In this document: piece by piece, positions 1,096 through 43,410 of the stretch
How the letters are laid out: each line of letters opens with the position of its first letter
How positions within the stretch are numbered: the stretch's first letter is position 1
DNA from: a virus
Strand: one strand, 5' to 3'
IMG/VR virus record: IMGVR_UViG_3300033153_000868
Location: 50,220-114,219 of that record
Length of the DNA stretch: 64,000 nt
Translations under genes and position numbers: made by a program
Notes under the pieces: generated by a model
Seen by the model: only the letters and a program-made list of their open reading frames with translations
The model's database searches: none
Told to the model about the DNA's origin: nothing

Positions 1096-4000
1096 TTACT
1101 TAATATAGAAATCAGAGTTTTTAAGGTATGAATCCCATTTCTGAATAGAATATAGTAGTGGGAATACATCTTTAATGTTTTTATATACCTTTAATTCTCC
1201 TTTTCTTTTACCTCTTTGATATACATAATTAGAATTAGCATAAAATGCTTCTTCATTTCCGGTTGCTTTAGCCATTGTATATTTGAAACCTCCAACAAAA
1301 ATCATTTCAAAAGCTTCAGACATTTCACTTACTGATCTTGATGCAGCAATAGGTGAGTTAAACATTTGCTCTACCTGTTCAAACCCTGCAAAAGAAGGCA
1401 TGAATAAAACAAGTTCCTTATATACTCTATCTGCTTGATATCTTGTTAAATTTTTAAATCTCTTTTCAGTATCACTATCATCATCATCACCAGATAATAA
1501 ATCATCAAATAGCAAAGAAATAAACATAACACTAAACATGATACCTAAATCACCCATACTTCTATAGAAACCAAATAGTCTATTCTTAGCTCTTTGATCT
1601 ATGTTACCCCCTCCACCATAATCTCTTGCTTCTCCAAACTTTTCACTAGTATATGCTCTGACTTGTTGGTTTAGGTATTCTTTACCCATTGTTCTAAAGT
1701 TCATATTACCTTGAGCCAACTCTTTTCTTGCAAAATTTAAGAATGATAAAGCAGATCTATATCTACCTTCCATCCATCCTAGATTTTCATCAAAGTATTC
1801 TCTTTGATACCTTGCTCTAATTGCTGGAGCCAACCACTTTTTAAATTGAATAGCTAATGCACCAAGTGTATGTGACTGAAGAACAATTCTATCTTCCTTG
1901 GCATAGTTACCATGAATTTGTTTGTTAACTTCTCTAATCTCATTTCTAATTTCATATCTTATATCATCATTATAAGCTACTTCTTGTCCATTTCTTTTGA
2001 TTACTATATCAAAACCATCTTTAATTTTATTCTTATGTGTTTTTGTATCGTATTCAAATGCATCATAAAATGACAGCTCTTCTCCTGTTTTACTATTTCT
2101 AATCATAGTGTCCATAAGTATAGCCATACCCACTTTGGTCTGTGAATTATATTCAGCAGCATCTTGCATCACGTAACCCCACTCAGTTGCTCTATCAAAC
2201 CAACTCTTACCATCTTCAGTAGCTCTACTTTGTTCACGTATATCAGACATACTATCCATCATTCTGAACATATCAACAAAAGCTTCATACTTACTATTAG
2301 GTAATTTTTTATCATAGTCAGCTTTAGCTAATCCTGGTATAACACCTAATGTTACTACGTCAAGTAAATCTTCTGCACCACCATGTGCTGTTCTATTGAC
2401 TAATCCTGGAATAGCTCTCTTATTAAATTCCCAGGTTGCTCTTTTAAATGCCTTTTGACTATAAAATCTACCACCAATAGATTCAATATTGTTATTTATT
2501 CTACCAATCAAGTAGTTATTAAAGTTACCAAATGGGTTAAACGCTACATATGATAAAGAAGACAACTGAATAAGACCATCTGCAATTTTATCTACAGCAC
2601 CCTTAGTAATGTTTTCATTTTCATAATGAATCATAGACATAAACTTCTTTGCTCTACGTACTACATTTTTTTCTTGAGTACTTGTATTAGCTTTAGTACC
2701 TAAATTATCTACAACTTTATCTTTTACTTTTGCTACTAGATTTAATCTCAATCCAGGAGCAGGAGTATATGTTCTGTTTTCAATTACCTTAACAAAAGCT
2801 TTTAAGGTATCATCTACAGCGCCCATTGTTTCATAGTTTTGAGCCATTGCACTAAACTTAAGTAAACTAGATGCCATATCTGTGCTAATCTGTCCTCTAC
2901 TTGGTGTTGCTCTGAGCCTTACCATTTTACCATTTAATACAGCTATTTGCTTTTTATACTGTTGATCTTGGATTTCATTCTTTTTATACTTTGATTTAAG
3001 AAGATCAATTTCTTTTTGTAAATCAGCCATATCAGTATCAAGCTTAGGTCTACCGGTATAGTAGATAGGCATTTGATCAATAATATAACCCTCATTATCT
3101 AGTATAACATTTTTTTGAGTAGAGGTTTGTTGAAACATATTCCAAGCCCTACTCTCTGTCATACTAGCATATAGCTTGGTAAACAAAGTTCCTTTCTCTT
3201 TTACATCAGACATCAATCTATTCTGTACTAAAGGAACTCTACCCAACATTTGTGCACTTTGCCCAATAGGTATTTTCTTAAGCAAGTCATTCTCATACAT
3301 ATCTATGTATAATTGATAAAACTCCCTTTGGGCTACAGATTTTGCGTCAGTACCGCTCATTATGGCATCATACTTGGCGTTTCTCATATTACGTCCATCA
3401 AGGGTAGTTTCTAGTATTTGTCTATACTCTGCTTTAGGCACCATCATATCTTGACGGTCTTCTATAATTTGTCCTGTTGCCTCTCCCTTTATTCTTACAG
3501 CTCTGGTATATTCAACCGGCTGATAATATTTTGCAACATAAGCTGCATAGTCTGCATCTGAAATATTTTTTTTCTTTTCCCAACTTCCTCTTTGATTAGT
3601 TTCAGCACCGGGTCTCCACACTTCATATTTATTTCTGATATCAATAAACTCTTGGGTGTACTTGTGATACATACCTGAAGGACGTAATGTACCATCATCT
3701 CTTTTTTGCTCAGCCATATAAAAATCTCCATATGCTTTCTTTTTAGCAGCTAGATCTTTATTGTATTCTATATCTTCCTGACTTGCTGTTTCTAAATCAT
3801 AAACAGGTCTGTATTGATATGGTGTACCTTCATTATCATAAAGTTGACTTCTGAGTTCATTTTGTATAGCCCAATATTGTTCTCCTATTTTTGTTACATA
3901 TCTACCATTAAAAGTACCGTCTGCATCATACTCTAACATGAATTTATATAACTCGTCAAGTTTTAATTCAGGTGATAACTTTGCAAGCTTTTGTCCAGCC

Positions 4001-6873
4001 GTTCTTATAAGGTTTTCTCTTTGAGCCACAAGATCTAATAGCTTTTGATTTTGGGCTTTTCTTATTTTATCCATTGTAGCCAATAGTACATCTGGAGATG
4101 TTGCCATATCTTTAGTTTGATATTCAGTGTCACTGATATCTGCAGCTTTTTCCATCAAAAGCTCTAAGTCTTTTTCAGTATATAAACTATTTTCACCACC
4201 AAAATCTCTATTTGATTTTAGCCTCACCATTTCTTTAACATAGTCTTTTAGTGCTTCACCTACTATTCCTCCTGTGTCAGTGCCAGCACCACTAAGTAAA
4301 TTAAGTTGTTGTTGTAATGATAAAATTAAATTCTTTTGAGTATTATTTAAACCTTTTAAATCTTTAAGTATAAAAAGCCCTTCAAACGTTTTCATATACT
4401 TATCAAAGTTTAAAACATAAGAAACATATTCAGGAGAATTTATATTCTTAGGATTTTCTACATAAGCTCTAAAATCTTTTATTTGAGATAAAGCATCAAG
4501 CAAAACTTCAGACAAAGCTTTTGATTGGCCTTTAACACTACCAGCCATAGCTAAGTTTATATATGCTATTGTTTTAGATATTTGATCAATTTCATTTTCT
4601 TTTGTTGATTCCATATATATATTAGACTTCAACAAAGGAATCATATCCCTTTTCTCAATAAGTGCTTTCTGATATGTATCTAGTAAACCAGCTGCAGCAT
4701 TATATTCATCATAGTTTTCTGCTGCTTTTTTATCATCTTCAGTTGTTTCCTCTTTCTGGTCTTTACCATTCCATATTTTATTGTATGAACCTTCTTGATC
4801 TTTTTCTAATCTACTTTTTTGATAGGAGTTTCTTACTTCTGGTACAAGAGCATCTACTAAATTAAGATTTTGACTTACAGGATGAGGGACCCATCTATCA
4901 AATTCAATTGATCCATCAAACACTTGATCAGATCCTGTTCCTTCTATACCAACTTTAAAGTGTATTGTAGAGGTGGCCCATTCATCATAAGATACTTCAT
5001 ACCCCATATTTTCAGCCATTCTTCTATATACATTAACTTGTAAGTTATGCTGTTGCTCTGTTGATAATTCTTTTGCTAATCCTTGTTGATATAACACTGA
5101 GTCTTGTTCTAAGGCGTAAAATCTTTCTTTATATTGATTTCCTATACGCTTTCCTTTTTTATCATTTAAAGCTACCTCTTTACTTAACTCATTTTTTGTA
5201 GTCTTAAGATCCATGATGTTAATTCTACCATGTTGATCTATAATAAATACATCTGCAGTACCGGCCATCTTAGAAGCTTCATCAAACAAAACAACTTGAG
5301 ATAACACAATTGCACCTTTCATTTTTAAACTATCCATAATACTAGCAAGAGTATCAAAAGTATCTTTAGCTTTATCTTTAGATATGTTATTTGTCTCTAG
5401 TGCAGCATATGCATCTTCAAAAGAAAGATTAGCAATAACACCATCTAATAGTGTGTCAACCTCATTACCAATATCCAAGTTAATCTTATGAGCAACTTGT
5501 TTATCTGGTGAAAGTTTTCCTTTTATAGCTGTGGTTACTGATGTATATACTTTATCAGAATCATTAGAATTTATATATGTATGATCTTCTTTATTAAGTG
5601 TTACAATTGAATCTCCAGCAGCTGCATCTTTTACTGACGCTGACAGAGAATCAACAAGACCAGAGTTTTCACTCTGTGCTACATTAAATAGCTGCATTAT
5701 AATAGGCTTCTGCGTATCATTAGCTCTTTCTAGTGCATCTTTGATTTGTATTTCTTTAGATGGTGATAAACTATATCTTAATTTACCGTCAACTCTTTTT
5801 TCTAGTTTAAACTGAATGCCTTCCGTATTAAGTAGTTTAGCAATATCACTTAGACTTGTACCCGGTTTAATAGCAGATACAGGTAACTCTCTACCAGTAA
5901 TATATTTATTAAGGTTTTCAATTACTCCTTTAAACCACTCAAGAAGTTCTTTAACTTTTGCTAGGAATCCTTTTGTAGGTGTTGTTTCATATTCTTTTTT
6001 GAAGTGTCTTGATAATGCTTGTGTTACAATTTCAAGATCTCTTTCTGTATCTGTAAAATTTCTTGTACTACTATTGTAAGCATCTTCAATTTCTGCTGAT
6101 AGTTCTGGAAAATTATTTACTGCTTCATCAAGAAGTGAGTTAAATAATTCTTCATTCTCCATCTTTACTGCATCTATAAAAGGATGCAACATTTCTTCAA
6201 TTGCTATTTCATCTGTGACCCTACCTTTTATTAAGTAAGCTACACCATCCATATAAAAAGAATTTATCTCATTAAAAGGAACGTTATTGGTTTTAGTTTT
6301 TGGTAATGATTCATACATTACTCTTGCTTGTGCAACAGATAACATTTTAACTTGTATCTGTGGAAACATTCTTTTAAGATGCATAACAACCGCTCTTGAT
6401 CTATTGGTGTCCCATGATCTTGAACTTTCAAGTATATCTCTAGCAGAGAACATATTATTGTTAGGTTCAATCTTATAGCTTTTTGGCGTTCTTGTTACTG
6501 TAAATGAATCTTTTGGTATGTTATTAATTTCTAAGTATCTGTAAAACCTTTTTAGATTACTTTGTAAAAAAGCTTCATCATATGATAATGTCTGAGGATT
6601 TGAATTATTAATTAAAAACTGCCCTGCTAAATTGCTACCTATTCTTTCTCTTCTTAAATTATTGAGCACGCTTTCTCCAAATGCTTTTCTTTTTAATGAG
6701 AATGCAATATCTTGGTCTTTAACCATAGTCTGAGCTTGGACAACACTAGGAAACGCATCAGAATCATTAACACGTTGCCAGTCACTAATAACTTTAGATG
6801 TTTTGATATCAGTACCATATTCATCCTTTAATGCTTGGTATCCCGGATCATTTCTATTATAACATTTAGCCAT
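1096..6873 (-). CDS. Giant putative ejected virion protein with a degenerate zincin-like region and a PD-(D/E)xK nuclease-like domain
   Basis: 1925 aa directly downstream of the vRNAP gene. EEMLHPF (~6178-6199) sits in a zincin-like context. AGTAD..IID..G.I.IMDLKT (~5200-5265) plus QL/QVxxY matches the PD-(D/E)xK fold. Single Cys at residue 4. Confidence 0.75.
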   Translation of the reverse strand: MAKCYNRNDPGYQALKDEYGTDIKTSKVISDWQRVNDSDAFPSVVQAQTMVKDQDIAFSLKRKAFGESVLNNLRRERIGSNLAGQFLINNSNPQTLSYDEAFLQSNLKRFYRYLEINNIPKDSFTVTRTPKSYKIEPNNNMFSARDILESSRSWDTNRSRAVVMHLKRMFPQIQVKMLSVAQARVMYESLPKTKTNNVPFNEINSFYMDGVAYLIKGRVTDEIAIEEMLHPFIDAVKMENEELFNSLLDEAVNNFPELSAEIEDAYNSSTRNFTDTERDLEIVTQALSRHFKKEYETTPTKGFLAKVKELLEWFKGVIENLNKYITGRELPVSAIKPGTSLSDIAKLLNTEGIQFKLEKRVDGKLRYSLSPSKEIQIKDALERANDTQKPIIMQLFNVAQSENSGLVDSLSASVKDAAAGDSIVTLNKEDHTYINSNDSDKVYTSVTTAIKGKLSPDKQVAHKINLDIGNEVDTLLDGVIANLSFEDAYAALETNNISKDKAKDTFDTLASIMDSLKMKGAIVLSQVVLFDEASKMAGTADVFIIDQHGRINIMDLKTTKNELSKEVALNDKKGKRIGNQYKERFYALEQDSVLYQQGLAKELSTEQQHNLQVNVYRRMAENMGYEVSYDEWATSTIHFKVGIEGTGSDQVFDGSIEFDRWVPHPVSQNLNLVDALVPEVRNSYQKSRLEKDQEGSYNKIWNGKDQKEETTEDDKKAAENYDEYNAAAGLLDTYQKALIEKRDMIPLLKSNIYMESTKENEIDQISKTIAYINLAMAGSVKGQSKALSEVLLDALSQIKDFRAYVENPKNINSPEYVSYVLNFDKYMKTFEGLFILKDLKGLNNTQKNLILSLQQQLNLLSGAGTDTGGIVGEALKDYVKEMVRLKSNRDFGGENSLYTEKDLELLMEKAADISDTEYQTKDMATSPDVLLATMDKIRKAQNQKLLDLVAQRENLIRTAGQKLAKLSPELKLDELYKFMLEYDADGTFNGRYVTKIGEQYWAIQNELRSQLYDNEGTPYQYRPVYDLETASQEDIEYNKDLAAKKKAYGDFYMAEQKRDDGTLRPSGMYHKYTQEFIDIRNKYEVWRPGAETNQRGSWEKKKNISDADYAAYVAKYYQPVEYTRAVRIKGEATGQIIEDRQDMMVPKAEYRQILETTLDGRNMRNAKYDAIMSGTDAKSVAQREFYQLYIDMYENDLLKKIPIGQSAQMLGRVPLVQNRLMSDVKEKGTLFTKLYASMTESRAWNMFQQTSTQKNVILDNEGYIIDQMPIYYTGRPKLDTDMADLQKEIDLLKSKYKKNEIQDQQYKKQIAVLNGKMVRLRATPSRGQISTDMASSLLKFSAMAQNYETMGAVDDTLKAFVKVIENRTYTPAPGLRLNLVAKVKDKVVDNLGTKANTSTQEKNVVRRAKKFMSMIHYENENITKGAVDKIADGLIQLSSLSYVAFNPFGNFNNYLIGRINNNIESIGGRFYSQKAFKRATWEFNKRAIPGLVNRTAHGGAEDLLDVVTLGVIPGLAKADYDKKLPNSKYEAFVDMFRMMDSMSDIREQSRATEDGKSWFDRATEWGYVMQDAAEYNSQTKVGMAILMDTMIRNSKTGEELSFYDAFEYDTKTHKNKIKDGFDIVIKRNGQEVAYNDDIRYEIRNEIREVNKQIHGNYAKEDRIVLQSHTLGALAIQFKKWLAPAIRARYQREYFDENLGWMEGRYRSALSFLNFARKELAQGNMNFRTMGKEYLNQQVRAYTSEKFGEARDYGGGGNIDQRAKNRLFGFYRSMGDLGIMFSVMFISLLFDDLLSGDDDDSDTEKRFKNLTRYQADRVYKELVLFMPSFAGFEQVEQMFNSPIAASRSVSEMSEAFEMIFVGGFKYTMAKATGNEEAFYANSNYVYQRGKRKGELKVYKNIKDVFPLLYSIQKWDSYLKNSDFYIK

Positions 6874-6888
6874 TTGATTATTGTTTAA

Positions 6889-9800
6889 TTATATAAGACA
6901 TTTAAGTCTCTCAATTATTTCTTGTTCTCCCTCTTCTGTTTGTGAAAATAAATCACCGTATAAAGCTATTGCATCATCAAGTGTTTTTATATTTTCTCCA
7001 GAAAGCTTTTCTAAAGCAGCACTATTACCTTCTACATTTGCATCCCACCATTCTACTAAACTTGAAGCTTCTGAAATTTCTTCTGAAGCAAAAAGATCAA
7101 GTTCTAGTTGTTCTTGCTCTTGTTGTTCAAGTTCTGTAGCTTCTGGAATGCTCATATCAGTATCTTCTATAATAGCATTTCCTGTCTCATCAAATATAGC
7201 ACTATCTGTGTTAGCAGACAACTCAGCCATTATTTTTGCCATATCAGATATATTTGTTTCTGCTGCATCTATATCTGCTTTAACTGTTACAGAATCTGTA
7301 GTTTGATTAACTATTGCTGAGTCAGAGTTTAATACTTCATTAACTTCTAGTATAGCTCCAAGATTAGTATCAACAGGATACTCAACCTCACTAGTTTGTT
7401 GTGCTGGTTGTTCTAGTTGTGCAGCTCTATCTTGAGGTAAACTATTTTGTGTAGTTCCTTTGCCTACATTTCTTGCTTGATCATATGTAAGTCTAGGTCC
7501 TCCTACAAAACCACCACCAAATTGTTGATTAGAACCCATAGAAGGAACTTCTAAGTATTCAGTTACCTTTGCATTAGGATTATCTTTAGCAAGCAATCTA
7601 AACAAAACATAGAAATCTCTACCTTGTCTTTCAACTTTAACCCTTACAAACTCTTTTGCATTTACATGTTCAAAACTCTCAGAAGTAATAGTAAACTTAT
7701 TAGGTCTAGAAACTGGGTCAAAAGTAAAGCCTTCATCAAGACTAGAAGCATCATAAGTGACAAGCAATGGTCCTACAACATTAGATTGTAAGTATCCATA
7801 TTTAAAATCTTTCATCACTTCTTCTTTAGAGATACCAAAGACACTTTCAAATTCTACTTGTCCTTTAAGTGCAGCTTCTACAGAACCAACATTCTTAAGA
7901 TATTTATTCATAATAAAAGGACTCATTGCACTCATAAGACTTCCATACTTAAGCTGCAATCCATCTTTAACCATCATGTAATGCAGAATGTCTTCAGCTA
8001 TTTCTCTTGTCTCAAGTGAACCATATAGTTTTGCAAAGGATGTTTGTAAATCAAGTTTATTAGATGCATTAAGTCTTCTCCATGTATCCGCTTTTACTAA
8101 ATTCATTCCTGTGTTATTACCCTGAGTTCCGGCATATTGAGTACCTACAAAATTATCTAAGAAGTAATTAGGCTCTGCACCTTGTTCAGCTCTTAGCAAT
8201 TGTAAATCTTCAATTTTTTTAATCAATGATAAGTTAGTTGTACCTACAGGACCAGGATAAAGCAATGTGTTTTCTACAGAAGAATTACCAGAGCTATTAT
8301 TAAGAAGATGTTGGTATGACTTAATTGTTAAATAAGATAATAGATCTTGTTCAATACCATTTTTTGCTACATTATCAAAACCTCTTGAGTCAACATTCAT
8401 TTGATTATAAGTAGGCTCTAGTATATCATTAAAGTCCTGACTCATAGTTAAAATAGTGTTAGGTAAAAGATCATTATGTATTTGACCAAATATTTCTAAA
8501 TAAGTACTCTGCCAAGTTTTGCTATTCTTACCATAAATAGGTCTGATATTCATAGGTGCTTCCTTATCAAACAAACTAGTAATTGTCTCAATAGCATCTT
8601 TCATTTCTGGTATTGAACTAGGTAGACCTTGAGTAAGACTTGTTACTTTATTTATTTTACCTGTAAAGTTTTTAATGTTATTAAGTCTTTCAAATAAAAA
8701 TAGTATTTGAAGTCTTTCATTATTAGTTAAATCTTCAGTGCTGTCTACAGCTGTCTCTAAAAACTCATCTGATAGTTTTACAAATGGTGGTTTATTGCCA
8801 CCTTCTTTTTCCTTAGCAACTAATGAGGCTAAAGATCCAATACGTTTTGTTAAAAGAGTATCTAAACCTGCATCAAATTTGTCCTCTTTATTTAAAGCTT
8901 GATCATACAAGTCTCTTATTTCAGCAGAATTTACTAATAAAATTGAAGTTCTTAGTGGGATCCCCAATGAAACCATATTACCAACTAAACCAACAGCATG
9001 AATATTAAGTCCAAACTTTGCTATTAAACGTTCTTTAGCATTATCAGTTTCCATTGTTACTAGAGTAGAAATAATATCTTGTATTCTTTCACCATTTATT
9101 TTGTCTTTAGTAAACCCATCATATGTATTATTATTAAATTTTATAGGTCTAGCTAATTTAATATTGTACTCACGCAATAAACTTAAAGCTAAATTAGGTT
9201 TAACAATAGCACCAATTGCAGCTCCTTTGTTTGCTTCAAAGGCTTTTATCATTCCATGAAGTGTGTCAATATCTACATCAGAATCCTTTCTGCTTGCAAA
9301 TAATTCTATACCCTCAACATTAGAAAGCTCATCAAATAAATCCTCTAATATTTTTAAGTCAGCTGCTTGATAAGCAATAGGTAAATCAGACTTACCTTCA
9401 CCAGCATCTTGATCAATAGTCTTTAGTGTTTCACCTGTTACACCAGTATTACCTGCTAATACATATCTATAATCTAAAATGTTATTGTTTAAAACCGCCT
9501 CATTAGGTGATCCAAACTTTTTAGAATATTCTTCAAATTGTTTTTTAGTAACAGGAAGACCCAATATTAACATTGCTCTAAGAGCTTCTTCTGATATACT
9601 GTTTACACCTTGTTTATCTGTAACTCTATTTTGTTCAGAATCACTCAAAGAGTTTTCCCTTCTAATAGCCAAGGTTTCCTCCTTGTATAAAGAAGATGAT
9701 GTACTATAAATATTATTAGGTTCAGAAGCTTTTTGATTCATGTACTTTATATACTCAAAATAAGAATTACCAGAACCGTAAGCTTTAAATTCTTTATTGC

Positions 9801-12800
9801 TATCTAAATAGTACTCTTTTGCCAATGCATATACTTTATCAATATCAAAATCCGCTCCTGATATTTCTACAAGTTCTTTTGGAAATATAGCTGTTGAACC
9901 ATAATATACAGGCATAAAATCAACAACTCTTATGTTTACAGCTGAATGTTTATCTTGTGTTGGTATACGTACTCCAAACAACTTGGCTACTGCATCTGGT
10001 ATTGAAGCATTTGAATTTTCTTGAATTAACTCCATTACATTTCTATCCATAGGAGGCATAATAGTTTCACTATATCTTACTCCTGTAGGCTCCCCATTTA
10101 CAACATCATCATTTTGGTATTCCATAACCCCTGTTCTAAGAACATCAAGAACAAGAATGCCATCATGTTTACCATCAACAAGATCATTTATATTTTCTAG
10201 GCTCTCTCCATTATAAGAACTTTCTCTTACAATCTCAGATCTAATAGGCATACCGTTTTTCATTTCATATACACGTCTGTAAACCTTATGACCAAATGAA
10301 GATAGTAATGCAACTGAAGTACCAGGTACTTTTTCTCTTAGTGTGCCTTTGCTAAAATAAGTCAAGAAAAGTTGTTCAAACTTTTTAGCTGTTACCGGAC
10401 TGTTTAAATTATACTTTTGAACACCATCTTCAACTCCAAAGAACTCAAGTAAGTTTGATGCAGCTCCTGAAGCCATAAGACCTTTTTGTGCTTCTAATAA
10501 AAATGCAGCAAGATTTGGGGTAATGGCTCCTTTTTCTTTTGATAATTCTAACTCATCAAGTGCCGTGTCAAAACTAAATACTAAATTTCTTTTGTTTTTG
10601 TATTTTAAAGTTACTCTTTCTCCTACTGCTTTGTTGTATGCGTCTCTTACTTTTCCTACAGTATTTAACTCAGGGCTTCCTTCTATAGTAATTTCTACAT
10701 CATCACTTTGTTCAGAAGTTATAAGCTCCTTGATTTGGTTCATATCAGTTACTATAATCTTGTTAGAAGGGTTTACAACTTGAAGACCCAAGTAAGATGT
10801 GTCTAAATTAATAGATTGCAAATCTTGTGTTGTATCAAATACATTTGACTCAAGTAAATTAATCCCCTGTTTTAGCATTTTTATTGCTGAAACTGGAGCC
10901 GCCATTGCAAAGTTTTTATTTGCTTCTTCATTAGCTTCCATTTGTTCACGTAAATAATGAAGCTGTTGCATGTTAGGTTTAGCCTCCCACGTACCTGTTT
11001 TTTGATTATAGTTGGATGTATACTCTTTTGTTAAAACGGTAACTGACATTTTTAAAGCAGTTTTACCATCCATATATACAAACTTCTTAGAGTTTATAAA
11101 GTCCTGTTGCTTTGCTAAATTAATAGAGTTTTCAGCAGAACCCCATGCTCTATCAGCATTTATAGACTCACCCTTATCAATGCTATCTAGCATACTTGCC
11201 ATTGCAGGACTTAATCTACCAAATGCAAAAGTAGAATATCTTATACCTTTTGTAGTAATATAAACTTGAGCATCTGCTAATTCAATATCATTACCTGTAA
11301 AATCAGACTTAGCTGTTGGATCTTGGAAAGGATATAAATCAAAATTAGTACTAGAATGAGTAATACCTTTATTAAGATCCGTAATTTCACTATAGGCACT
11401 ATAGTATGCGGCATTCTGTAGTTTTGCTCTTTTAACTTTATCAACCATGTCTTTTAAAGATACAGCTTGATCACCAAGCAGTAAATCATTCATTGACTTA
11501 GAATTGATATAGTTGTTAAAAAATATTTGTTTTAAGTTATATGCTGAATCATTTGTAAGATTTAACTTAAGTTGTGATAATTCAACAGCACCTCTAGAAA
11601 CACCAGATGCAATAGTTAATCCGTTTAATACTTGCGTAGAAAGATTATCTTTTGCTTTTAATGATGTAATCACATCATCAAATTCTTTAAAGCTTTGCTC
11701 TAAGCTTTTATTAACTTCTGATCTAATAGATGCATTTGTTACACCTACAGCTAGTGACACAGCTTGTTTAAAAGAAACCGTCTCTCCTTGTTTAGCTTTA
11801 TCAATAGCAACTTGTATTAATGCTTTTTTGGTTGATTCAGAAAGCAATAATCCATTATTAGTAAATTTGAATGCTCTGCCTTTATCAGACCTATCACTTT
11901 TTTCATTATTAAATCCTTGAATATCACCAGGTGCATTTTCAAATGCTAATGTTTCTTTGCTAATTCTATCAAACTCAGCCTCTATGCTATTTATAAATAC
12001 ATTAATAGCTTCTGGTGTAAGAACAACATTACCGTTAACTTCAGTAACTGCTTTAATAACAGGCAAACTTGTTAGGTCTCCAGTGTTAGCTGCTTCCATT
12101 ACTCTTAAAAATACAGGAGCCATTGCAACTTGTTGGCCACCTTTTCCTTCTACAGTTTCAACTCTACCCGTTCTTCTGTTAAAATTAGAAACATAGTTGT
12201 TTATAATAGCTATAGCAAACTCTTGTGGCGTAAACTCTCCAAAACTTTGTGTTGATTTATTTTTTGATATAGATTCATTTAATATATCTTCAACAGCTTG
12301 ATCATTTTCAGCGTTTGTAATTTGCTCTTTAATTTTACTACCAGCAACTCTTATTACTTTTAGTCTATTCTGATCAGATAAGTTTAAAAATGCTTCACTA
12401 TTAAGCAAATAATTATTTGATAAAAAGTCTTCACTTTTTAATTGTTCAATTTTAGATCTGTTATTTAATGACCCAATGCTTTTTAAATGATATGTAGGTA
12501 ATTGATGAGCATATACAATATCACCATTAGGATTTATAAATGTTGATGATCCAATTGTTTCATCAAATGCAGCATTAGAAATACTAAGCTTAGTAAGTCT
12601 TGATGCCATACCATCCTGTTTAGTGGAATATATATTTGCATTTGTACTAAACCCAGAATATAATTGATCTAATAAATCATTTGTTATTGGTTCCTCTGTA
12701 TATCCATCTGACAATGCTTTTAATTCAGGACTGTTTTTTAAGTCAGCTTCTGTTTTAGATTTAGCAATACTATATGCAATGTAGTTAGGGCTTAATCTAA

Positions 12801-15800
12801 TACCTATTAGATCAAACATGCGTTGAGAAAACTCTCTAGACATTTGATATGCTAAAGATGTTGACTCTGGATATGAAGTCATTGCCTCTTTCATATCTTT
12901 AGTAAGGCTTAAGAATTGCTTTAATCTCTTAGGGTTAGCTGCAGCAAGTTTTCTTTTTGTTATGTATGCTTGAGCCCATTCATCTAACTGAGCATTAATA
13001 TCATCTCTTTCAGATGCAGTATATACTAATAAGTTACCATTACCATCTCTTTCATTAAATAGATAATCAACCTTGTAGTTTTCAAATCCTTTTAATATTG
13101 ATATCAATAATGAACCATCTTTAACATCTTTAAATGGTTGCTCTGATGTTAGACCTTCTATTGTTAATCCCGTATCATTAAATAATTTATCTACAACCGC
13201 CTTACCTTGTGGATTTAATCTAGAATATGCATACATTCTTTTAAGCATAACTACAGGATCACTTTCATTTGAAACTGATTTTAATAAGCTAGTATATGCT
13301 TCTTGAAATTTAACAGGAACAATCAATGCTTCACCCTCAGTTAATTCTGTCTTACCAAAGAAGTCAGTATCAACCATTGTTGTAGTAGCTATATATGATC
13401 TTACTTTATATGATAAAGAGTTAAAACCACCTATCTCTGCTGCATCTTTATTAAAGTCACTTGTACTTCTTATACCTGAAGTCTCTTCAACATTTTCTAT
13501 TTTTAATTGATTAGCCTGATCCATATCAGAAATAACATTAATCAAAGCAAACACTTCTTTTTTAATGTCTTCAGGATAATTTATAAATGCCATATCAATT
13601 TGTTCAAGATATGCTTTCTTTGTTCCAGAAAAACCTTTGTTGGCTTCTCCCTCTGGATCAAGCATAATCATGAAATCTGTTTCAAGATCATTATATACTT
13701 TTGTAGGGTTATATGACTTCTCAGTTAATGATAATTCATTTACTCTATTTATAAACATACCAGCCATAGATCTAATTAAAGGATCTATTACATCTGAGTC
13801 AACATATAGCTCTCCTGCAGGCTCACCATTTTCTACAGCTTTAGATGCTGTGTCATATCTAACTAATGCATTGGCAATACTAAACGCACCGCTTAAAGAG
13901 TCATCAAGTTGTGTAAATTCATTAAGTTGTACAGGGGCATTTTTAAATTTACCTGAATCTATATTTTCATATAACGTTAGTAACTCTGTAGAAGAGTACT
14001 TAGAAAATACAGCTTTAATCCACTCTATTAACTTAGTAAAAAATGATTTTATTTCTGTATCTATTTTTGAGCTTCTTGGATTCATTTTGAATGCATCAAA
14101 TTCATCCGCCATATATTCTTCAGCAAACTCATTTTCTAACTCAAGTTGAGACATTTCTTTATATTGCTCAGCTGAATTCTTAAACTTTTCTAATTCTATT
14201 TTATACTTAGATCCATACTTGGCTTTTAATTCTTTTTTAGCAATGCTTCTATATCTATCAATCTGCCCTTGAGTAAGAACTGTTCTAAATATACTATGGA
14301 ATGCCTCATGGTATTTATAAGGGCTTAATGGGCTTGTATATATAATACCGTTTACATCTACTCCATTAGCTACCCTATCTAAATTTAATACAAAAGAACC
14401 TACTCTTTCATATCCTTTAGAAATACCATTGTCAGCAAGAACCAAAAGATCTTCTACACCAATTATATCTGGTAAATTATCATTAGCCCAATCTAAAAAC
14501 TCATTGTAGTCTTCTATACGCTCTACTTCTGATGTTGCTTGTACTAGCTTATTAGCTCCTCTTTCTAGTTTTTTTCTTTTAGCTAATAAATCTTGGTACT
14601 CCTTGCTTTCTTTAATAGCTTTTATTTTATCCTTCTTGGTAGTTAGGCCTTCTTCTAGCTTCTGCTTTAAAGCACTAAGCTCATTTTTTACACTATCAAG
14701 AGTAGTTTCTTTTTCTGATTTTTCTACAGCTAGTGCACCGGCTCCTCCACCTTTAATCACCATAAGGTTAACTAACTGTTTAAAGTTTGAGTCTTTCATT
14801 AACTCTTTTTCTCTTTCAGTTAATTCAATCCCTCTGAGTATTGCATTAGAAATGTGATCAATATTTTCTTGATATTCTCCAAAGTTATTATTAGATACAT
14901 CATCTACCATTTTATCAAACTCAGCTTCTTCCATATCAGATACGGAATCCTCTGCTTCTGCAGATGTAGGTCTATCTCTACCTACTGCTGATTCCATTTC
15001 TAACTCATTGCTTTTATCTGTATTAGGAATATATGCAATATCACGTGATAATTGTATAGAATCTGATGAAGCAGAAACTTCTGCTGTTTGATTTTTTACT
15101 ACTTGTGGTAAAACTTCAGTAGTACTATTTTCATATATTACATCAGGAGATACACCTGTTGCAAAAGATTTTCTAAAGTTTTTATTTTTTAATCCTGCAT
15201 TTAAATCATCTACTGTTTTATCTTGATTATACTTTGCAAGTAAGTCTTCAAATACATCTTTAGCAAACTCTTTTGCTTCAACTTCTTCTGGTTTTAGACC
15301 AACATTTAAACTTGTTTTAGTGCTTGTATTATCTAAAGAAATAAAAATAGATCCGTCAGGTCCTACATTTAACTCTATTAAGTTACCCGAATAACTACTT
15401 AAAAACAATCTTTCATTTAATTCTGCATTATACTTTGCAGCTTCTTCCATACTTTTTTCTGAATCTTTTATAGCACCTATTCTTTTAGCTGCCTCAACTA
15501 CATCTACATATAATTCTTGTAATTCAGTATTAGTATATTCAACCGGTTTTAAATTTACTTTTGCGTATGTACCATTTGGCAACCTAACCATAGCTAGATA
15601 TCTGTCAGTACCCTTTCCTGCATCCAGTAAGTTATCCCACTGATTCTGCATTCTAAGTTGTTGCTCTATTGCTTCTTCTAAAGCCTCTCTTTCTTTACCT
15701 TTTAAATTAGTAGTAAAGTCATAAATTCTTTTACCTGTCTCTTTATCATATTTTAAATCAAATACAAATAAGTTACCTTCTTGATCTGCTGTATTGTACT

Positions 15801-18800
15801 GCAATGCATCCATTGATATAGGATAAACCGTTTCTCTAGATTTAGCATATGCAACTTGACCACCCCCGGCTACTAAGTTTATATTAAAAGGAAGCTCCTT
15901 AGAGTCTGCCATAAAATATGAAGGCTCACTACCTATATTTAAATTATCAAATGTTTGTACAATTAATGCATTTATTGCAAACGCTCTGTGCACTTTCTCT
16001 AGTGCTTCAGCTTTTTGTTCTTTGTTTAATCCTTTTTCTGCTAGTATAACATTGCTTGCTTGTTCTCTAGTCATAGATCTAGGATCTATAGGACTGTTTG
16101 TACGTTGATCTCTAATTAAAAAAGATTCATTGTTTATATAAGCAAAAATTCCTTCCTCACTATTGGATGGTTCAATGCCCATCTCAACTAGTTTTATGTT
16201 AATACTATCACGTAAATCAGATGTAGCTGCTCTTATACCAATGACGTATTTACTTACTAATCTATCTATTAATGGGTTTGCTTCTTTATATATTTCACCA
16301 TCTCTATTTTTAGCAACATAAGCACCTGTATTGTTACCGCCATCAGAAGTTCTCATAACAACCAATTGCAATCCTGCTATTTCTTCAGGAGAAAGCAAAC
16401 TAAGAATAGCATTATATCTTTCTATTGCTTTAGCATTATCAGTACCCACACCACCTTCAGTATAGTTTACATGAGGATAGAATGAAGTTAAATCTTTTAA
16501 TTGAATCTTAGTTACTGTATCCGGAATCAAGTTAAATGTAGTTTCTTCTAAAGTAAACTTGCCATTAAACTCACCTTGTGGAATAAACAAAAACTTTCTT
16601 TCTGAAATAGGACCTGTATTATCAGATTCTTTAATTACTTTAAGCTTTTGATTTTCTCCATACTTTTTAGAAAACCTTGGATCTTGAACAACTATATATT
16701 TTACACCATCTTTGTATACTATTTGTCCATATGTTAATCCATCAACACCATCAAAACTAAATGGAGTTGTGGAGTCTACTAGATTTGCATTCAAAGATTC
16801 TAATGCTTGTTTAGCTGTTTTACCTTGTCCAGATAAAAATACTCCTTGTACTGATTTAAAATTTGTATCTATAAAGTCTAAGATATCATCTGATAACTCA
16901 TTCCCTTTTTTATCCAGGAGTTTATACATTTCAACAATTTCTCCTGTTTGGTTATCTACTACTGATATCTTATATATATCTGCAGTAACACCTTCTTTAT
17001 AGAAAACTCTTTGAGGTGTATCTTCTAGCGCTTGCCCTTCTTCTAAACTAACATCCTTACTTTCAACAATATCAGACATTTCAACACCTGATTGATTTAG
17101 TATTGATGTTATAACAGGGTTGTTAATTAAAACTTCAGGGTCTTGTAGAAACTCTTCAAATCCGGTATCATTTTTTATTACATCTTTTTCAAGCGGATTG
17201 ATAAACTCTAATATGCCCTCAACATTTACTTCAGGTTTTCCTGATGCCCAAACCTTTTTTATAGCATTAACAACATTTCTAATATTCACTGCTTCTGCAG
17301 TATTCATCCATTCAGTGCTATCTAAAATAGGCTGTCCTAATCTTGCTTGTTTTGCTCTATATTTATTATAACTTCTTTTTAAAGCATTGACTAATAAAGG
17401 GCTATTAACACTTACATCAATTTTAATATCTATTCCCGCTTTATCTAAAAGCATATCTAGTGCAGATCTAGTTTCTTCACTTTCTTCAATAGATATTTCT
17501 TCTTCTGTTTTTACTTCTTCAGGTTGAGTGCTTTCTGCTCTAGTTTCTTTATAAACGTTTAGGTGACTTTGAATTTGTTTAAATAATACTGAATGTACTT
17601 CTGGTACAACCTTACCATTATCATCATAGAAGTCCTGTAAAAATGTTACATTACCTGTTTCCAAAAACATTTTTGTTTGTGAAATAGCCGGGTATACGCC
17701 CATTTTACCTAACTGATTTATTAATTCATTTGCCTCAACAATACTTACATACTGCTTTAACATTGCTTCAGTTATCTTAGAACGCTGATTATAAATCTCT
17801 TTGTTTACTTCGTATTGTCTTTGTTGAATCTCAGAAAACTTTTCTGGATTTTGCATGTATTGAATAGCTTTATCATATACACGTGCTCTTCCTTTTAAAG
17901 CACCGTAGTCAACAATTTGCTCAAGAGCTGCATCTATTTTTGATTCATCAGCAAATGTACCAGCAGCAGATGCCATGAATCTTACATAGTTTCTAAATTC
18001 AGTTCTAAGCTTTCCTTTTAAAAGTTTGTTTCTTTTAAAGGTTCCATTCTTAAATCTATTCTTTGGATCAGTAATGATTTTTTGAATGGCTTTTAGTCTT
18101 TTTATTTTTTCTTTTTTTGTTTTATTAGATTCTCCAATACCTTTATCTGAACCTTCAGTTGCAATAATCTCAAGGTTAAGCATATCTATTTCATTCTGAA
18201 TTGATTTTTCATCAAGCAAGTTTGTTATATCATTTGCTGACATTTTATCAAATAGCGGATCAGATTGTAATTTAGTGTAGATACTATCTGCTCTTTCTAA
18301 TGCTCTTGTAAATCCATCATTAGTAAACATATATAAATAACGCACATGTTCATATGCTTCTTCATTTAACATTTCTCTAATGTATTCTCTTTGTTGAGTC
18401 TTAGGATTAAATTTATTTTTGTTAAAAGGGTTTTTATATTTATCCTTGTTTAAATTATAAGACTCCTCCATCTTATCAATACCCACAAGCATATCATTAA
18501 TACGTCCTCTTAGCTTACCATCTTTTTTATCTTTATTAGATACGCCTGGAAATGCTTGAGCTAACTCTTCATCTGTTAATTCTAAAAACCCTCTTAATTG
18601 ATCTTTAAAGTGTTGTGACCCATTACCAGCAAACATTGTATAGTATTGTTGGAATTTAGCTCTATCAGCACTATCAACAAAATTAAATATATCAAGAGCA
18701 CCCTTTATGTTTTCAGCTGCTTCTTTCTGAATCATAAAGTTTAATCTGTTTACATCAAATAAACTAGAAGGATCTATTGCTTGCGCATCCCAAGATTTAT

Positions 18801-20712: not shown

Positions 20713-20726
20713 CTAATTTTGATTTA

Positions 20727-23700
20727 TTATTTACCGTGTATAGCTTTATCTTTTTTCTGCAAAGCTCTATTATTAGTTCTAATATTTTCTAAGAGTTCCT
20801 GCATCTTCATTGTTTGCTGATCAATACCCATTAAACCTTGGCTAAAATCCATTTTCTCTGAGCCAGTTGAAGTTGTATATTCAGTCCAATTAGCTTGTTC
20901 AGCTGGATCTGTTGGCTTAGGATTATATCTATTAATTTCATATATCATATCATAGTCACCGGTTCCATTTTTAGTAATTCTAAAAGTACCTGTATTTGTA
21001 ATTCCATCATCATTAGGAACAACATAATCATGATAAGTACTATTATCTCCTCCTAATATATCCATTTCAGTAGAAGAAAAATAATCATTTTTTCTAGCTT
21101 TAGGGTTTAGATCATACTTTTGATCAAAGACAAGAAATATACCCGTTCCTTGATCATCCTCACCGGCTCCTTTTAATAAAGCAATGTCATCAGTAGTTAA
21201 TGCACCAAATTGTTTTGTAACGTCTGATGTTGGTCCTTTTACTTTTGAAGCTAACCATTCAGACATATTATCTATTTCAAAACCAGCATGCGTTTTGTCT
21301 GCCTTAGATGCTATATCAAAAACAGATTTGTATGAAAGTCTAAATATAGGAGCAATTGCTGCTGTATTAGATCTTTTAGGATTATTAAGCCAAGTTTGTG
21401 TATCTTTTATTAATAGATCCAAAACCTTAGTACCAAGACCATCTCTCTGTAGAAGTTGATCTTCATTTTTCAATGTACCAGTACCTATACCAAATGGAAT
21501 ACCGTTTTCTTTTAAGTACTTTAATTGACCAAGCATGTTTTGCATTTCTCCAAATGCATTGGGGCTTGGTGATAACGGATTAAATTCATATGTATATGTA
21601 GGATTATTTACTATATCTGCATAGCCACCTTGGACACCATTCTTAATAGATTCAAATGAAGCTGACGCAGTGTTAGCATCTCTTTGATCTGTTAAAGCAG
21701 CATTTAATTCTAATGCCAAAGCATCATAAACTTTGTTTGCCTCGTCTCTAATTTCTTCTTTGTTAATGCGTCTTGCAACGTGGGGTATGTTTATAGGTCT
21801 ATCACCTCTTATTGCTTGTACAGCAGGTTTTCCTGTATTTTCTGTTGTAAACATTGTTCCATCTTGATCTGGACTATCTACATAGAACAAAGGCGTAGAA
21901 CTATTAAAAGCCTCTCTAACTTTTACCATGTCATTTCTGCTCATTGTAAATTTGAACTTATAGTTTTTATCAGTACCGCCATCAACAACCCATGATTGAT
22001 CTGTATTAATTAACTCACCTGCTCTAGCCCTTTTTAAAGCTTCTTGATAATGAGCCTCTCTAGAACCATAAGGTACACCATTCTCATCAAACAAACCTGG
22101 CATACCAGCTTCTAACATGCCTTTTATATTTGTAGCTTCAGTAGACCCAGATGTAACAGTATTCAAAACATCATTGTTATCATAAGCCTCTTTATATGTT
22201 CTATATGCTTCTTGAATAATTATATCACCTGCTTTTGCTTTTGTATCTATACCATTAACCCCAACCATTCTATTATACAAAGCATCATATTGTGTTGACT
22301 GATCTTGAGTAGTAGGTATATTATCTTTAGTTACCTGTCTAGTATCTATAAATGCAGCTTTATTTGTATTATATAATTCTTTGATAGCATCTATATATTT
22401 TAACCCTCCAGTTCCATCTGAATTAGCAGGAGTACTTAATATTCTTCTTAAATCACTAATACTTCCATTTACTTCTCCTCTGCCTTTAATATTTATACTA
22501 TAGGTTTGATCTTCAGCATTTGTATTTCCTTTAGGGTACATTAGCTGCAGCATTCCGCTTTGGTTATCTGTACCCAATATTGCTCCAACATAATCTACAG
22601 CAGTAGACTGTAAATGTTCCGCATAAGCTTTTTGTGTAGTTCCTACAATATCTGAATTAGCCGTAAAATTACCATCTTCATCTACTGCACCAGTTATAGT
22701 ATTTGCATCTGAAAGACTAAACACAGGTTCATTTAACATAGATGCTAAATCACCAAAAAAACCACCACCAGCAGCAGCAGATCCTTCAGCCCAAGGTAAT
22801 GCAACAAGGTTTCCTTCCTTGTCATACTTATACCCTTTCTCTAATAAAGTATTATCATCTTTTCTATTTGCTTTATATGCTGCAAGGTTAAATTCATTAG
22901 TAGCACGTGCTTGAATTTCTGCCATGTTATATTTAAACTCCTTTTCCTTAACAGCAAATTCATTAGGTTTCATTTCAAAGATATAGTCTCTAGCACTCCA
23001 TGCTTGAGCAGATTCTTTCATATCATCTATAATGTTACTTTGCATATACAAGTTATATGCTTTATTTATAACATTCTGATTTGTAGGAGTAGGTCTATTG
23101 ACTTCTTGTGCTATTTGTTTTTTAGCTTCTATATCTAATTTATACTTTTCTATATCAGATAGTTGCTCTCTGTCTAGTTTATCAAGACCACTACCCGGTA
23201 CAATACCATTTTTAGCTTTATAGTTAGACCATGTAACAGCAGAATTTTCTGCTTTACGTAATGCTTCTACATCATTATTTAACTCAGCAGAATTTCTAGC
23301 TTCTATTCTTCTAATAGTTTCATTGGCCCACATTTCTTGACCGTTACTAAGAGATGCAGCTGCACCATTATTAACAGCATCAGTTGCAAAGTCCATCCCT
23401 GCAACATAAGCTTCCATTTGATAAGCTTTTTGTACAGAAGGATTATCTAATAGGTTATTTCTAATCTGTTGTAGTGCTGCACCAGTAACCAAAGAACCAT
23501 TTTGTTCAGTAATAATCCAATCAGTGTTGGCTATTTCTTTTCTATTTTCACGTGATACAGGTTTATTAGGATCAAAGTTTGGGTTTGGTACTTTAGCAAA
23601 CCTATCCATTTTCATTTTCAATGGTGGATCCATGTTAGCCAACATTTGCTGACTCATTTTAAATAAGTTAGCTTTAGGCACATAATCAGGCAAAGACATT

Positions 23701-24185
23701 CTTAATGCATCTTCTGGATCAGAATTAATAAACTCATCCATTTTATATTGCATGCCTCTCATTCCAACATCCCAGTATTTTTCTTGTACCGTTTGATCAG
23801 GAGAATTTAATAAGTTCTGTGCTCTTTGTGATTGATCTCTAAACCTTGAGGTATAGACCATATCCTTTACAGTAATATCATCTTCATAGAATGGTGCAAA
23901 AACACTTTTAGCCGCATCTACATTAGAAGCTAATGATAAATCTAATCCTGATATTTGTTCTATTTGAGGAGCAATTTGCTCAGCATATTGATCTCTCCTC
24001 TCTTTAGTATCTTCTCTTGATAAGTCTGCATAAACAACTTTATTATATAAGTCATTTGTAGCTTTGTAATTAGCATCATACTTATCAGTTCTAGTTTGTA
24101 GAACAGCAGACAAGAATTTATAATCCGGTGTAAACGGTTTAATGTCTGGTAAATAAGTATCTGCTCCTTTAACGTATGTTGCCAT
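20727..24185 (-). CDS. Large putative internal virion (cargo/ejection) protein
   Basis: 1152 aa, no Cys, helical character. Lies between cargo genes and the vRNAP, as in crAss-like phages. Confidence 0.6.
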   Translation of the reverse strand: MATYVKGADTYLPDIKPFTPDYKFLSAVLQTRTDKYDANYKATNDLYNKVVYADLSREDTKERRDQYAEQIAPQIEQISGLDLSLASNVDAAKSVFAPFYEDDITVKDMVYTSRFRDQSQRAQNLLNSPDQTVQEKYWDVGMRGMQYKMDEFINSDPEDALRMSLPDYVPKANLFKMSQQMLANMDPPLKMKMDRFAKVPNPNFDPNKPVSRENRKEIANTDWIITEQNGSLVTGAALQQIRNNLLDNPSVQKAYQMEAYVAGMDFATDAVNNGAAASLSNGQEMWANETIRRIEARNSAELNNDVEALRKAENSAVTWSNYKAKNGIVPGSGLDKLDREQLSDIEKYKLDIEAKKQIAQEVNRPTPTNQNVINKAYNLYMQSNIIDDMKESAQAWSARDYIFEMKPNEFAVKEKEFKYNMAEIQARATNEFNLAAYKANRKDDNTLLEKGYKYDKEGNLVALPWAEGSAAAGGGFFGDLASMLNEPVFSLSDANTITGAVDEDGNFTANSDIVGTTQKAYAEHLQSTAVDYVGAILGTDNQSGMLQLMYPKGNTNAEDQTYSINIKGRGEVNGSISDLRRILSTPANSDGTGGLKYIDAIKELYNTNKAAFIDTRQVTKDNIPTTQDQSTQYDALYNRMVGVNGIDTKAKAGDIIIQEAYRTYKEAYDNNDVLNTVTSGSTEATNIKGMLEAGMPGLFDENGVPYGSREAHYQEALKRARAGELINTDQSWVVDGGTDKNYKFKFTMSRNDMVKVREAFNSSTPLFYVDSPDQDGTMFTTENTGKPAVQAIRGDRPINIPHVARRINKEEIRDEANKVYDALALELNAALTDQRDANTASASFESIKNGVQGGYADIVNNPTYTYEFNPLSPSPNAFGEMQNMLGQLKYLKENGIPFGIGTGTLKNEDQLLQRDGLGTKVLDLLIKDTQTWLNNPKRSNTAAIAPIFRLSYKSVFDIASKADKTHAGFEIDNMSEWLASKVKGPTSDVTKQFGALTTDDIALLKGAGEDDQGTGIFLVFDQKYDLNPKARKNDYFSSTEMDILGGDNSTYHDYVVPNDDGITNTGTFRITKNGTGDYDMIYEINRYNPKPTDPAEQANWTEYTTSTGSEKMDFSQGLMGIDQQTMKMQELLENIRTNNRALQKKDKAIHGK

Positions 24186-24244
24186 AATGTAAAATTAATA
24201 TAATTATATAAGTTTACAAAGTGTTTTGTATAAACCCTTTAGGT

Positions 24245-27208: not shown

Positions 27209-27210
27209 AA

Positions 27211-30012: not shown

Positions 30013-30072
30013 GTTGATAATATTATATTATTAATATACAAATAATTAGGGAGATTCACTAATCTTTATGGT

Positions 30073-42460: not shown

Positions 42461-43399
42461 TTAGCAAGTTGGGCATGAACTAGATGATGTAGTAGGCGCA
42501 GCTACTACTTGTGGATTAGCTGGTGCATAACTTAAAAACATATTATAATAATTATGATATTGTGCTCTTCTATTCATATTCCACACTTTTCTCATTTCTT
42601 GGAAGTTTGGTGTATTAACAAATCCTAATGCATTATTTCTTGCACCTCTTAATCTGCCTTCTACAAGTTGCAACTGCTGAGATACATTTTCACCATTCCA
42701 AACCATATTTTCTAATATTCTTTGTTTTATTGCATACTCATAATATTCATTGCAATAGGGTTGATCTAAAACTAATAAATCTCCCTCTGCATTTTCCATA
42801 GCACCTTGATAACTTAAATACACTTTCCCTGTTGTAAAAGTAGTTACCAAAAACCCATCTTTTATTTCTGCTATATCTAATGCTTGTGCACCTAAACTTG
42901 GACAATAACAAACTTTATCATTTACATCTTTTATTCTTAATTCAGTCCATGTTGTAAAACTTCTGAATTGTCCACCACCAATTCTTTGTACTAGTTGATA
43001 TTCATTCTTATTATCACATGTTTTAACTACACATACATCTTTACATGTATCACTGTCTTTACATGGTTCAGCATCATTAGGTGCTGGGACATAGGGTACA
43101 TCATTAAAGGTTTCAACGTGAGTACCAGATGGCATAGAGTTATTTACAGTATATTCCCCACATCTAAATGCATAATTTAAATATTGAAAATCAAAAGGTA
43201 ATTGACCTCTTCCATGTTCTATATCTATAATAACTTCTTTAGTTCTATGAATGCGTAAACCTAAATCATAATTAACTCTTTGTGCAACTTTAATTAGTTG
43301 AGCAGGTTCTATCATTCCTTCTAACGCATACGTAGAAAAATCAATAGATACGTCTTCCATCAATTGACTAAATGTTCTATATTTTTGTGATACCCCCAT
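42461..43399 (-). CDS. Putative tail ring / tubular protein
   Basis: 312 aa, position immediately upstream of Tstab; G.VYLSYQG...GDLLVLD.PY..EYYEYAIK pattern; Cys-rich insert. Confidence 0.6.
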   Translation of the reverse strand: MGVSQKYRTFSQLMEDVSIDFSTYALEGMIEPAQLIKVAQRVNYDLGLRIHRTKEVIIDIEHGRGQLPFDFQYLNYAFRCGEYTVNNSMPSGTHVETFNDVPYVPAPNDAEPCKDSDTCKDVCVVKTCDNKNEYQLVQRIGGGQFRSFTTWTELRIKDVNDKVCYCPSLGAQALDIAEIKDGFLVTTFTTGKVYLSYQGAMENAEGDLLVLDQPYCNEYYEYAIKQRILENMVWNGENVSQQLQLVEGRLRGARNNALGFVNTPNFQEMRKVWNMNRRAQYHNYYNMFLSYAPANPQVVAAPTTSSSSCPTC

Positions 43400-43410
43400 T
43401 ATTATAATTT

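Follow-up and report, generated by a model that had tools for sequence, protein, structure and literature searches.

A stretch of 64,000 nucleotides (nt) from a virus (IMG/VR virus record IMGVR_UViG_3300033153_000868, positions 50,220 to 114,219), below called the window, contains two adjacent genes encoding very large proteins of 4607 and 1925 amino acids (aa). The only cysteines of these proteins stand at the two ends that face each other across the gene junction. Similar pairs of terminal cysteines occur in every family of Crassvirales that was sampled, and they follow the breaks between protein modules, being present where neighbouring modules are separate proteins and absent at fused junctions. 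Comparison of the sequences suggests that the facing ends are probably joined by a head-to-tail disulfide clasp standing in for a peptide bond.

The gene of the 4607-aa protein, here called the giant, occupies positions 6889..20712 and the gene of the 1925-aa protein positions 1096..6873, in both cases including the stop codon; both genes, like all features of the window given below, lie on the minus strand (-). A first-pass annotation, made from the sequence alone, had described these open reading frames (ORFs) as adjacent, and both are present in the ORF list. By script count, the giant contains one cysteine in total, residue 4605, which is the third from the C-end (K-C-L-I-stop) and is encoded by the TGT codon at 6898..6900. 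The 1925-aa protein also contains a single cysteine, residue 4, encoded by TGT at 6862..6864, and its N-end reads M-A-K-C. Thus there are two cysteines per 6532 aa, each at a facing end, and the counts and coordinates of the first-pass annotation are exact. If one cysteine were placed at random in each protein, the chance of both falling this near the facing ends would be about 1.4e-6.

The tail barrel ring proteins R1 and R2 are encoded at 42461..44085 and match the Pfam families CrAss_Ring_1 (34.9 bits, cut-off 27) and CrAss_Ring_2 (65.1 bits, cut-off 27). Since both matches are above the Pfam cut-offs, the window is placed in Crassvirales, and by this evidence it represents the module of a crAss-like phage that encodes virion and cargo proteins. 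By sequence homology the giant is a gp47-like zincin module fused to a gp50-like two-barrel RNA polymerase, because it is similar to two separate proteins of PhiCrAss001 and contains the characteristic motifs of both. Residues 2103-2321 of PhiCrAss001 gp47 align with residues 2073-2278 of the giant (BLASTP, E 8e-8), and residues 1397-1496 of gp50 align with residues 3540-3634 (BLASTP, E 2e-15). A motif search identified the polymerase metal-binding motif DFDID (9838..9852, residues 3621-3625), of the DFDxD type described for crAss-like virion polymerases (bioRxiv 10.1101/2020.03.07.982082); the region around it matches 108 crAss-like records (tblastn). The gp47-like half is marked by the zincin motif HEAFH (14296..14310, residues 2135-2139; motif search), and the same HEAFH occurs about 185 residues ahead of the C-end of PhiCrAss001 gp47. 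The fusion point lies at residues 2300-2330 as located roughly from the zincin motif and the gp47 alignment, and contains no cysteine. The 1925-aa protein is a homologue of gp49, judging from the alignment of PhiCrAss001 gp49 residues 795-1181 with its residues 1308-1713 (BLASTP, E 1e-25). The first-pass label of the 4607-aa protein, virion RNA polymerase (vRNAP), is correct for the gp50-like half with DFDID, whereas the other half is the gp47-like zincin module.

The cargo proteins of PhiCrAss001 and phi14:2 were found in virions by mass spectrometry, and by homology the proteins of the window are most likely virion proteins that enter the host by ejection as well. Searches with the whole sequences of both large proteins against PHROGs, Pfam and PDB sequences gave no match, and the gene junction likewise had none in the phage collection (blastn). 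When the alignment of the gp49-like N-end (alignment A4) was used as a profile against the PDB, the only match was a chance ribosomal one.

Two scans of IMG/VR produced 109 related loci containing the junction, with 54 distinct junction sequences. In these relatives, the giant is seen in part (up to 3,000 residues) and the downstream protein (about 1,900 residues) is complete. There is exactly one cysteine in the visible part of the giant, at 2-5 residues from the C-end, and exactly one in the downstream protein, at residue 3 or 4. For the 54 distinct junctions this covers 131,027 residues upstream and 100,119 downstream, about 231,000. There are two apparent exceptions, L074 and L029: the former is a frame artefact, its twin L075 being normal, and the latter is considered below. 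The clade is diverse, with identity falling to about 33% in the giant's tail. Across the giant's last 90 residues, no column other than the cysteine is invariant (alignment A3, 32 diverse relatives). At the N-end of the gp49-like protein, M1, C4, N6 and N8 are invariant in alignment A4, and Cys4 is invariant along with N6 and N8 in alignment A1 as well; mean column identity over the first 300 residues is 62% in alignment A4. The frame relation and the spacer between the two ORFs vary among the relatives. Conservation of both terminal cysteines, on which the first-pass proposal depended, was found in 109 of 109 loci and in every Crassvirales family sampled.

Besides the clade of the window, the families sampled were Steigviridae, Intestiviridae, Suoliviridae and Crevaviridae. 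In the sequences compared, the terminal cysteine pairs track the breaks between the gp47-, gp50- and gp49-like modules in three architectures. Firstly, the three modules may be separate proteins. In phi14:2, the lone cysteine of g067 is the final residue, the g066 polymerase has only Cys3 and Cys2179 of 2180 residues, and g065 has the lone Cys3; thus the trio contains four cysteines per 5,398 residues, every one at a facing end. In PhiCrAss001, gp47 has the lone Cys2339 of 2341 residues, gp49 the lone Cys5, and gp50 has Cys5 and Cys2404 of 2412 plus one internal cysteine. About 35 distinct Steigviridae variants, and likewise cr116_1, have the same terminal pattern as these two phages. Secondly, the gp47-like protein may be separate and the gp50- and gp49-like modules fused, as in p-crAssphage, crAss002, cr3_1 and cr127_1 (Intestiviridae and Crevaviridae), where the cysteine pair flanks the single break. 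In p-crAssphage and crAss002 there are no cysteines near the fused gp50/gp49 junction, which was located by alignment; in cr3_1 and cr127_1 cysteines were read at the break only. The third architecture, with the gp47- and gp50-like modules fused and the gp49-like protein separate, is that of the window and its marine clade and also of six Suoliviridae, three of which have TAG recoded; again one pair is present at the single break. The modules of PhiCrAss001 (gp47/gp50/gp49) and phi14:2 (gp67/gp66/gp65) are homologous to those of the window, with the DFDxD motif and the terminal-cysteine rule in common; the difference is that in the window the gp47- and gp50-like modules are one chain, leaving one cysteine pair instead of two. 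The outer ends, that is, the N-end of the gp47-like and the C-end of the gp49-like module, have no cysteine in the window, PhiCrAss001 and phi14:2. No substitution of the cysteines was observed in the 54 distinct junctions or in the four other families. The absence of the pair at fused junctions agrees with what the first-pass annotation had asked of fused orthologues.

One explanation of the pattern is chance, or a feature of the junction acting at the nucleotide level, such as a coupling signal or a read-through context. Indeed, the two ORFs of the window share a frame and are parted by one TAA and 15 nt (6874..6888, from the giant's TAA to the next ATG). However, neither the frame nor the spacer is the same in the relatives, and the genes of gp47 and gp50 in PhiCrAss001 lie on opposite strands and still have the pair, so that the signal resides in the proteins rather than in the DNA or RNA of the junction. 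For one genome the probability of such placement by chance is about 1e-6, and the pattern is found again in each family sampled. This explanation is thus extremely improbable. Fusion of the two ORFs by read-through or frameshift was rejected, as their frame relation is not conserved. Three other candidates were rejected as well. A split intein requires at least 6-12 residues, and there are two after Cys4605 and three before Cys4. A CaaX lipidation box has its cysteine fixed in the fourth position from the end, with aliphatic residues after it, and here the position varies from the last to the eleventh. A lipoprotein signal would need a signal peptide, and there is none ahead of Cys4.

The C-terminal module of the giant (6892..7065) comprises about 58 residues with four short predicted helices and has a conserved pattern in alignments A2 and A3. 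In the AlphaFold2 model built on alignment A3 (mean predicted local distance difference test, pLDDT, 70.7), the helices are formed by model residues 33-44, 47-55, 61-68 and 76-89, and Cys4605 is predicted to be in the last turn of the last helix. The conserved N-terminal 300 residues of the gp49-like protein (5974..6873; alignment A4; AlphaFold2 pLDDT 76.6) are modelled as a coil of residues 1-9 carrying the cysteine, followed by a helical part and then a zincin-like part. Model residues 150-298 resemble zincin-like folds with middling Z values of 5-7.4 (VIA-align), and Foldseek of the 300-residue model against the PDB yielded nothing at E up to 0.001. A motif search identified the degenerate zincin motif E-E-x-x-H at residues 226-230 (6184-6198). 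The same degenerate form occurs in PhiCrAss001 gp49 and cr118_1, and the intact HExxH in phi14:2 g065 and cr7_1 gp33; from these motifs, many lineages may have a gp49-like protease that is inactive or has changed. An interface prediction for the giant's last 90 residues and the first 300 residues of the next protein, each partner given as a 32-row alignment, scored 0.27 against the mark of 0.32 in a run without controls, which weighs neither for nor against docking.

The zincin-like domains on both sides of the junction bring up the possibility of a metal site, in which the two thiols share a metal as a zinc bridge, or the terminal cysteine caps the zinc of the neighbouring zincin as a latency "cysteine switch". 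In gp47-like modules the distance from HExxH to the C-end is about 185-215 residues, and in gp49-like proteins HExxH or E-E-x-x-H follows the N-end at a distance of about 230-260 residues; the fold matches at Z 5-7.4 point in the same direction, and in some Suoliviridae tails a histidine is adjacent to the cysteine. On the other hand, two thiolates do not make a zinc site, and there is no extra conserved ligand, as only the cysteine is invariant in alignment A3 and only asparagines are invariant near Cys4. Further, the fused giant of the window retains the intact HEAFH with no cysteine nearby, and hence the zincin needs no cysteine cap, whereas the gp49-like motif of the window has lost its first histidine and yet the cysteine pair is kept. 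A metal-binding role is therefore unlikely.

Another possibility is that the ends dock without a covalent bond, and that the cysteines are kept merely as buried residues of the interface. Both are indeed situated in conserved terminal modules. In modular polyketide and non-ribosomal peptide synthases, short C- and N-terminal docking modules join successive polypeptides in a fixed order, with no covalent link. Like the terminal modules described here, these docking domains are dispensable where modules are fused; they differ in being non-covalent and are unrelated in sequence, so the analogy is functional only. However, a steric role could be fulfilled by serine, alanine or valine, and no such substitution is seen. 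Besides, the proteins are otherwise purged of cysteine, with one per 2,000-4,600 residues. The C-terminal cysteine of the relatives is followed by zero to ten residues, being the last residue in some and as far as the eleventh from the end in others, which does not fit a fixed buried position. We regard purely non-covalent docking as quite unlikely.

A solved structure provides a precedent for a disulfide. In the cryo-electron microscopy (cryo-EM) structure of the pre-ejectosome of the cyanopodophage A4, the C-terminal helix of gp27 is inserted in gp26 and fixed by the disulfide Cys1715-Cys5 (PNAS 2025, PMC12002296). A check of the sequences of this phage (Anabaena phage A-4L) demonstrated that gp27, of 1717 aa, has the lone Cys1715, third from the end, and that gp26, of 1114 aa, has the lone Cys5. 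As in the window, the two are encoded by adjacent genes of an ejection operon, gp27 upstream of gp26, and the signature of lone cysteines at the facing ends is the same. The differences are that the phage A4 proteins contain no RNA polymerase, and that the paper describes one bond in one phage and not a rule that tracks splits and fusions of genes. Disulfides do form in crassvirus particles, since the PhiCrAss001 virion contains inter-subunit disulfides in gp57 and between the tail hub and ring proteins (PMC10172136). The same study expects the virion-packed cargo of PhiCrAss001 to be ejected partly unfolded, and its authors suggest that the proteins leave in an order determined by their packing and by interactions among them (PMC10172136).

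From these observations we infer docking, the disulfide chemistry, the timing of its formation and opening and its use in ejection as follows. The helical C-terminal module of the giant would dock on the N-terminal region of the gp49-like protein, and the inter-protein disulfide Cys4605-Cys4 would form after assembly or release of the particle. The clasp would take the place of the peptide bond found in relatives with fused modules, holding the modules at 1:1 stoichiometry, end to end, in one unbranched thread of about 6,500 residues. Partly unfolded, the thread would pass the narrow portal and tail channel in single file, which would still be possible because the bond is within 2-4 residues of both chain ends. 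With the remaining cargo purged of cysteine, no wrong cross-links would arise, and the reducing cytoplasm would open the disulfide. The chain linked by cysteines that was proposed in the first-pass annotation thus gains from the comparative tests and the cryo-EM precedent; the bond itself, its chemistry, threading and reductive release remain inferred. As a tentative generalization, crassviruses and, by convergence, unrelated podophages such as A4 may be using a redox-cleavable substitute for the peptide bond. Matched one-cysteine docking modules would produce a single unbranched thread, packed at fixed stoichiometry, that would be drawn through the tail in a set order and cleaved by the reducing cytoplasm of the host, and fission and fusion of modules would be neutral since the clasp and the peptide bond would be interchangeable.

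Several points weigh against the disulfide clasp. Gut crassviruses are anaerobic and are assembled in a reducing cytoplasm; therefore an oxidant or a catalyst would be needed. The pattern of splits and fusions reflects few independent events (at least two, plus L029), and most of the conservation of the cysteines is due to shared ancestry. A profile of the gp50-like N-end found no relic inside the fused giants, whose junctions are not placed to the residue. The phage A4 case is analogy and not homology, because its proteins have no sequence similarity to those of crAss-like phages: no BLASTP match of gp27 or gp26 to the crAss proteins was better than E 0.1. No chain of this phage was listed in fold searches with the 300 N-terminal residues of the gp49-like protein, which does not by itself exclude kinship. 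The RNA polymerase cargo is without resolution in the reconstructions of PhiCrAss001 (PMC10172136), and linked species are not mentioned in the papers on phi14:2 gp66 (Nature 2021) or the PhiCrAss001 virion (PMC10172136). Finally, the sequences indicate that a terminal cysteine can have other partners, because lone C-terminal cysteines occur with no N-terminal cysteine in the next gene. Such cysteines near the C-end were found in p-crAssphage gp47 and gp48 (L118), crAss002 gp30 (L119) and cr3_1 gp20 (L124). These Intestiviridae virion proteins form two groups: a family of small membrane proteins ending in the conserved motif R-C-G-G, and an 857-aa protein with a lone penultimate cysteine.

The unpaired cysteines, as well as the several structural disulfides in the PhiCrAss001 virion, are in line with the possibility that the terminal cysteines bond elsewhere: to the matching end (C to C or N to N) of a second copy of the same protein, to the portal, to the capsid interior or to other cargo. 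However, this leaves unexplained why cysteines are present on both sides of a break and why fused junctions and outer ends are free of them, and the bond solved in phage A4 is heterotypic and goes from head to tail. Thus a different partner seems unlikely, and the clasp between the facing ends is retained as the preferred reading.

The other relevant system is that of N4-like phages. The first-pass annotation mentioned that the N4 virion polymerase has no cysteines; this is confirmed by a study in which cysteine suppression in the ejected proteins of N4-like phages is explained by passage through the cell envelope (PMC11445570). The vRNAP operon of Schitoviridae (N4-like) resembles the cargo genes of the window in that a giant polymerase packed in the virion is encoded together with partner ejection proteins, and that cysteine is strongly suppressed in them. 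On the other hand, it has no terminal cysteines at all, its three domains are in one chain, and its polymerase is of the T7-like single-subunit type, unlike the two-barrel DFDxD enzyme considered here. A search of the giant against PDB sequences, N4-type structures included, gave no match at E up to 1. The system of the window works like an N4-type ejected vRNAP but is not a member of that group.

The published descriptions of the PhiCrAss001 and phi14:2 cargo do not mention the cysteines (PMC10172136; Nature 2021), and a literature search found no paper stating the terminal-cysteine rule for crassviruses. The principle has one solved example, in the unrelated phage A4; the window adds an architecture of two chains with a single remaining cysteine pair, and a large marine clade without variation. 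Crassviruses are the most abundant phage group of the human gut. Podophages have to move megadalton amounts of protein through a narrow tail, with an entire RNA polymerase among them, and for this the clasp, if true, would offer a concrete mechanism, cheap to test, by which packing would be stoichiometric and ejection ordered and tethered. It would also explain the purge of cysteines from the cargo proteins and the freedom with which the three modules have been split and fused in evolution. Finally, it would mark true protein ends, as with the probably too early start codon of crAss002 described below. Both phi14:2 and PhiCrAss001, in which the signature is cleanest, are cultured phages.

Cysteine depletion extends beyond the gene pair named in the first-pass annotation, over six consecutive ORFs (1096..36159). 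These contain 4 cysteines per 11,632 aa, while the window's remaining long ORFs contain 140 per 8,450 aa (Fisher p 2e-47). Upstream of the giant there are four more cysteine-poor putative cargo genes (20727..36159), encoding proteins of 1152, 987, 933 and 2028 aa; three of these have no cysteine and the 2028-aa protein has two. The latter, Cys1600 and Cys1605 (31345..31362), are the sole cysteines of the block besides the facing terminal pair, and by local sequence they lie in the S-x-G-C region, the catalytic motif of the YkuD domain (Pfam, residues 1464-1624). Since the remaining two cysteines are in this catalytic region, it seems that cysteine is tolerated in the cargo block only where it is needed. 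The 2028-aa putative cargo protein (30073-36159) combines an SLT transglycosylase and two LysM domains, after which comes the YkuD L,D-transpeptidase domain; an L,D-transpeptidase in an injected or virion-borne protein is unusual. In the 186-aa protein encoded at 46052-46612, residues 1-47 contain 11 cysteines and precede a weak match to fibronectin type III, in sharp contrast to the cysteine-free cargo block.

Several loci have additional or apparent breaks. In L029 (8101-11186), the giant is followed by a 400-aa protein with Cys3 and a cysteine second from the C-end, and then by the gene of a GIY-YIG homing endonuclease. The ORF after the endonuclease gene begins with a cysteine at residue 3 and its later part matches the usual next protein; the contig ends inside this ORF. 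Judging from these sequences, L029 may be a recent extra split that is again flanked by cysteines on both sides. In the Steigviridae loci L192-L199 and L204 from IMG/VR, the ORF of the gp50-like polymerase is broken near the DFD motif and the broken ends have no cysteines; L194 contains a cysteine-rich 244-aa ORF inside the gap. The breaks are probably due to introns or endonuclease insertions rather than being true ends of proteins. In L020 (3484-3523; the same contig as L056), the giant ORF changes frame with an overlap of 40 nt and no cysteine at the break, and it is intact at this place in the near-identical L018 and L057. Thus the break in L020 is probably a sequencing frameshift. A scan with the N-end of p-crAssphage gp44 retrieved near-identical genomes only and added no diversity.

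The annotated start of crAss002 gp33 (L119:15624-15730) lies 32 codons ahead of an internal M-S-C, and p-crAssphage gp44 begins with a matching sequence. By this match the internal methionine is probably the true start, which places a cysteine at residue 3. In cr116_1 (L121:20642-23870), a LAGLIDADG-like gene of 215 aa is located between the gp50-like gene and an 833-aa ORF. This ORF has a C-terminal cysteine and no N-terminal one, and Cys6 is found in the ORF that follows. The 833-aa ORF may begin at another position or be joined through splicing. In the Suoliviridae cr4_1 (L113), cr56_1 (L115) and cr7_1 (L122), each cargo ORF contains from 7 to 148 in-frame TAG codons, which fits known stop-codon recoding, and the terminal-cysteine rule holds there too.

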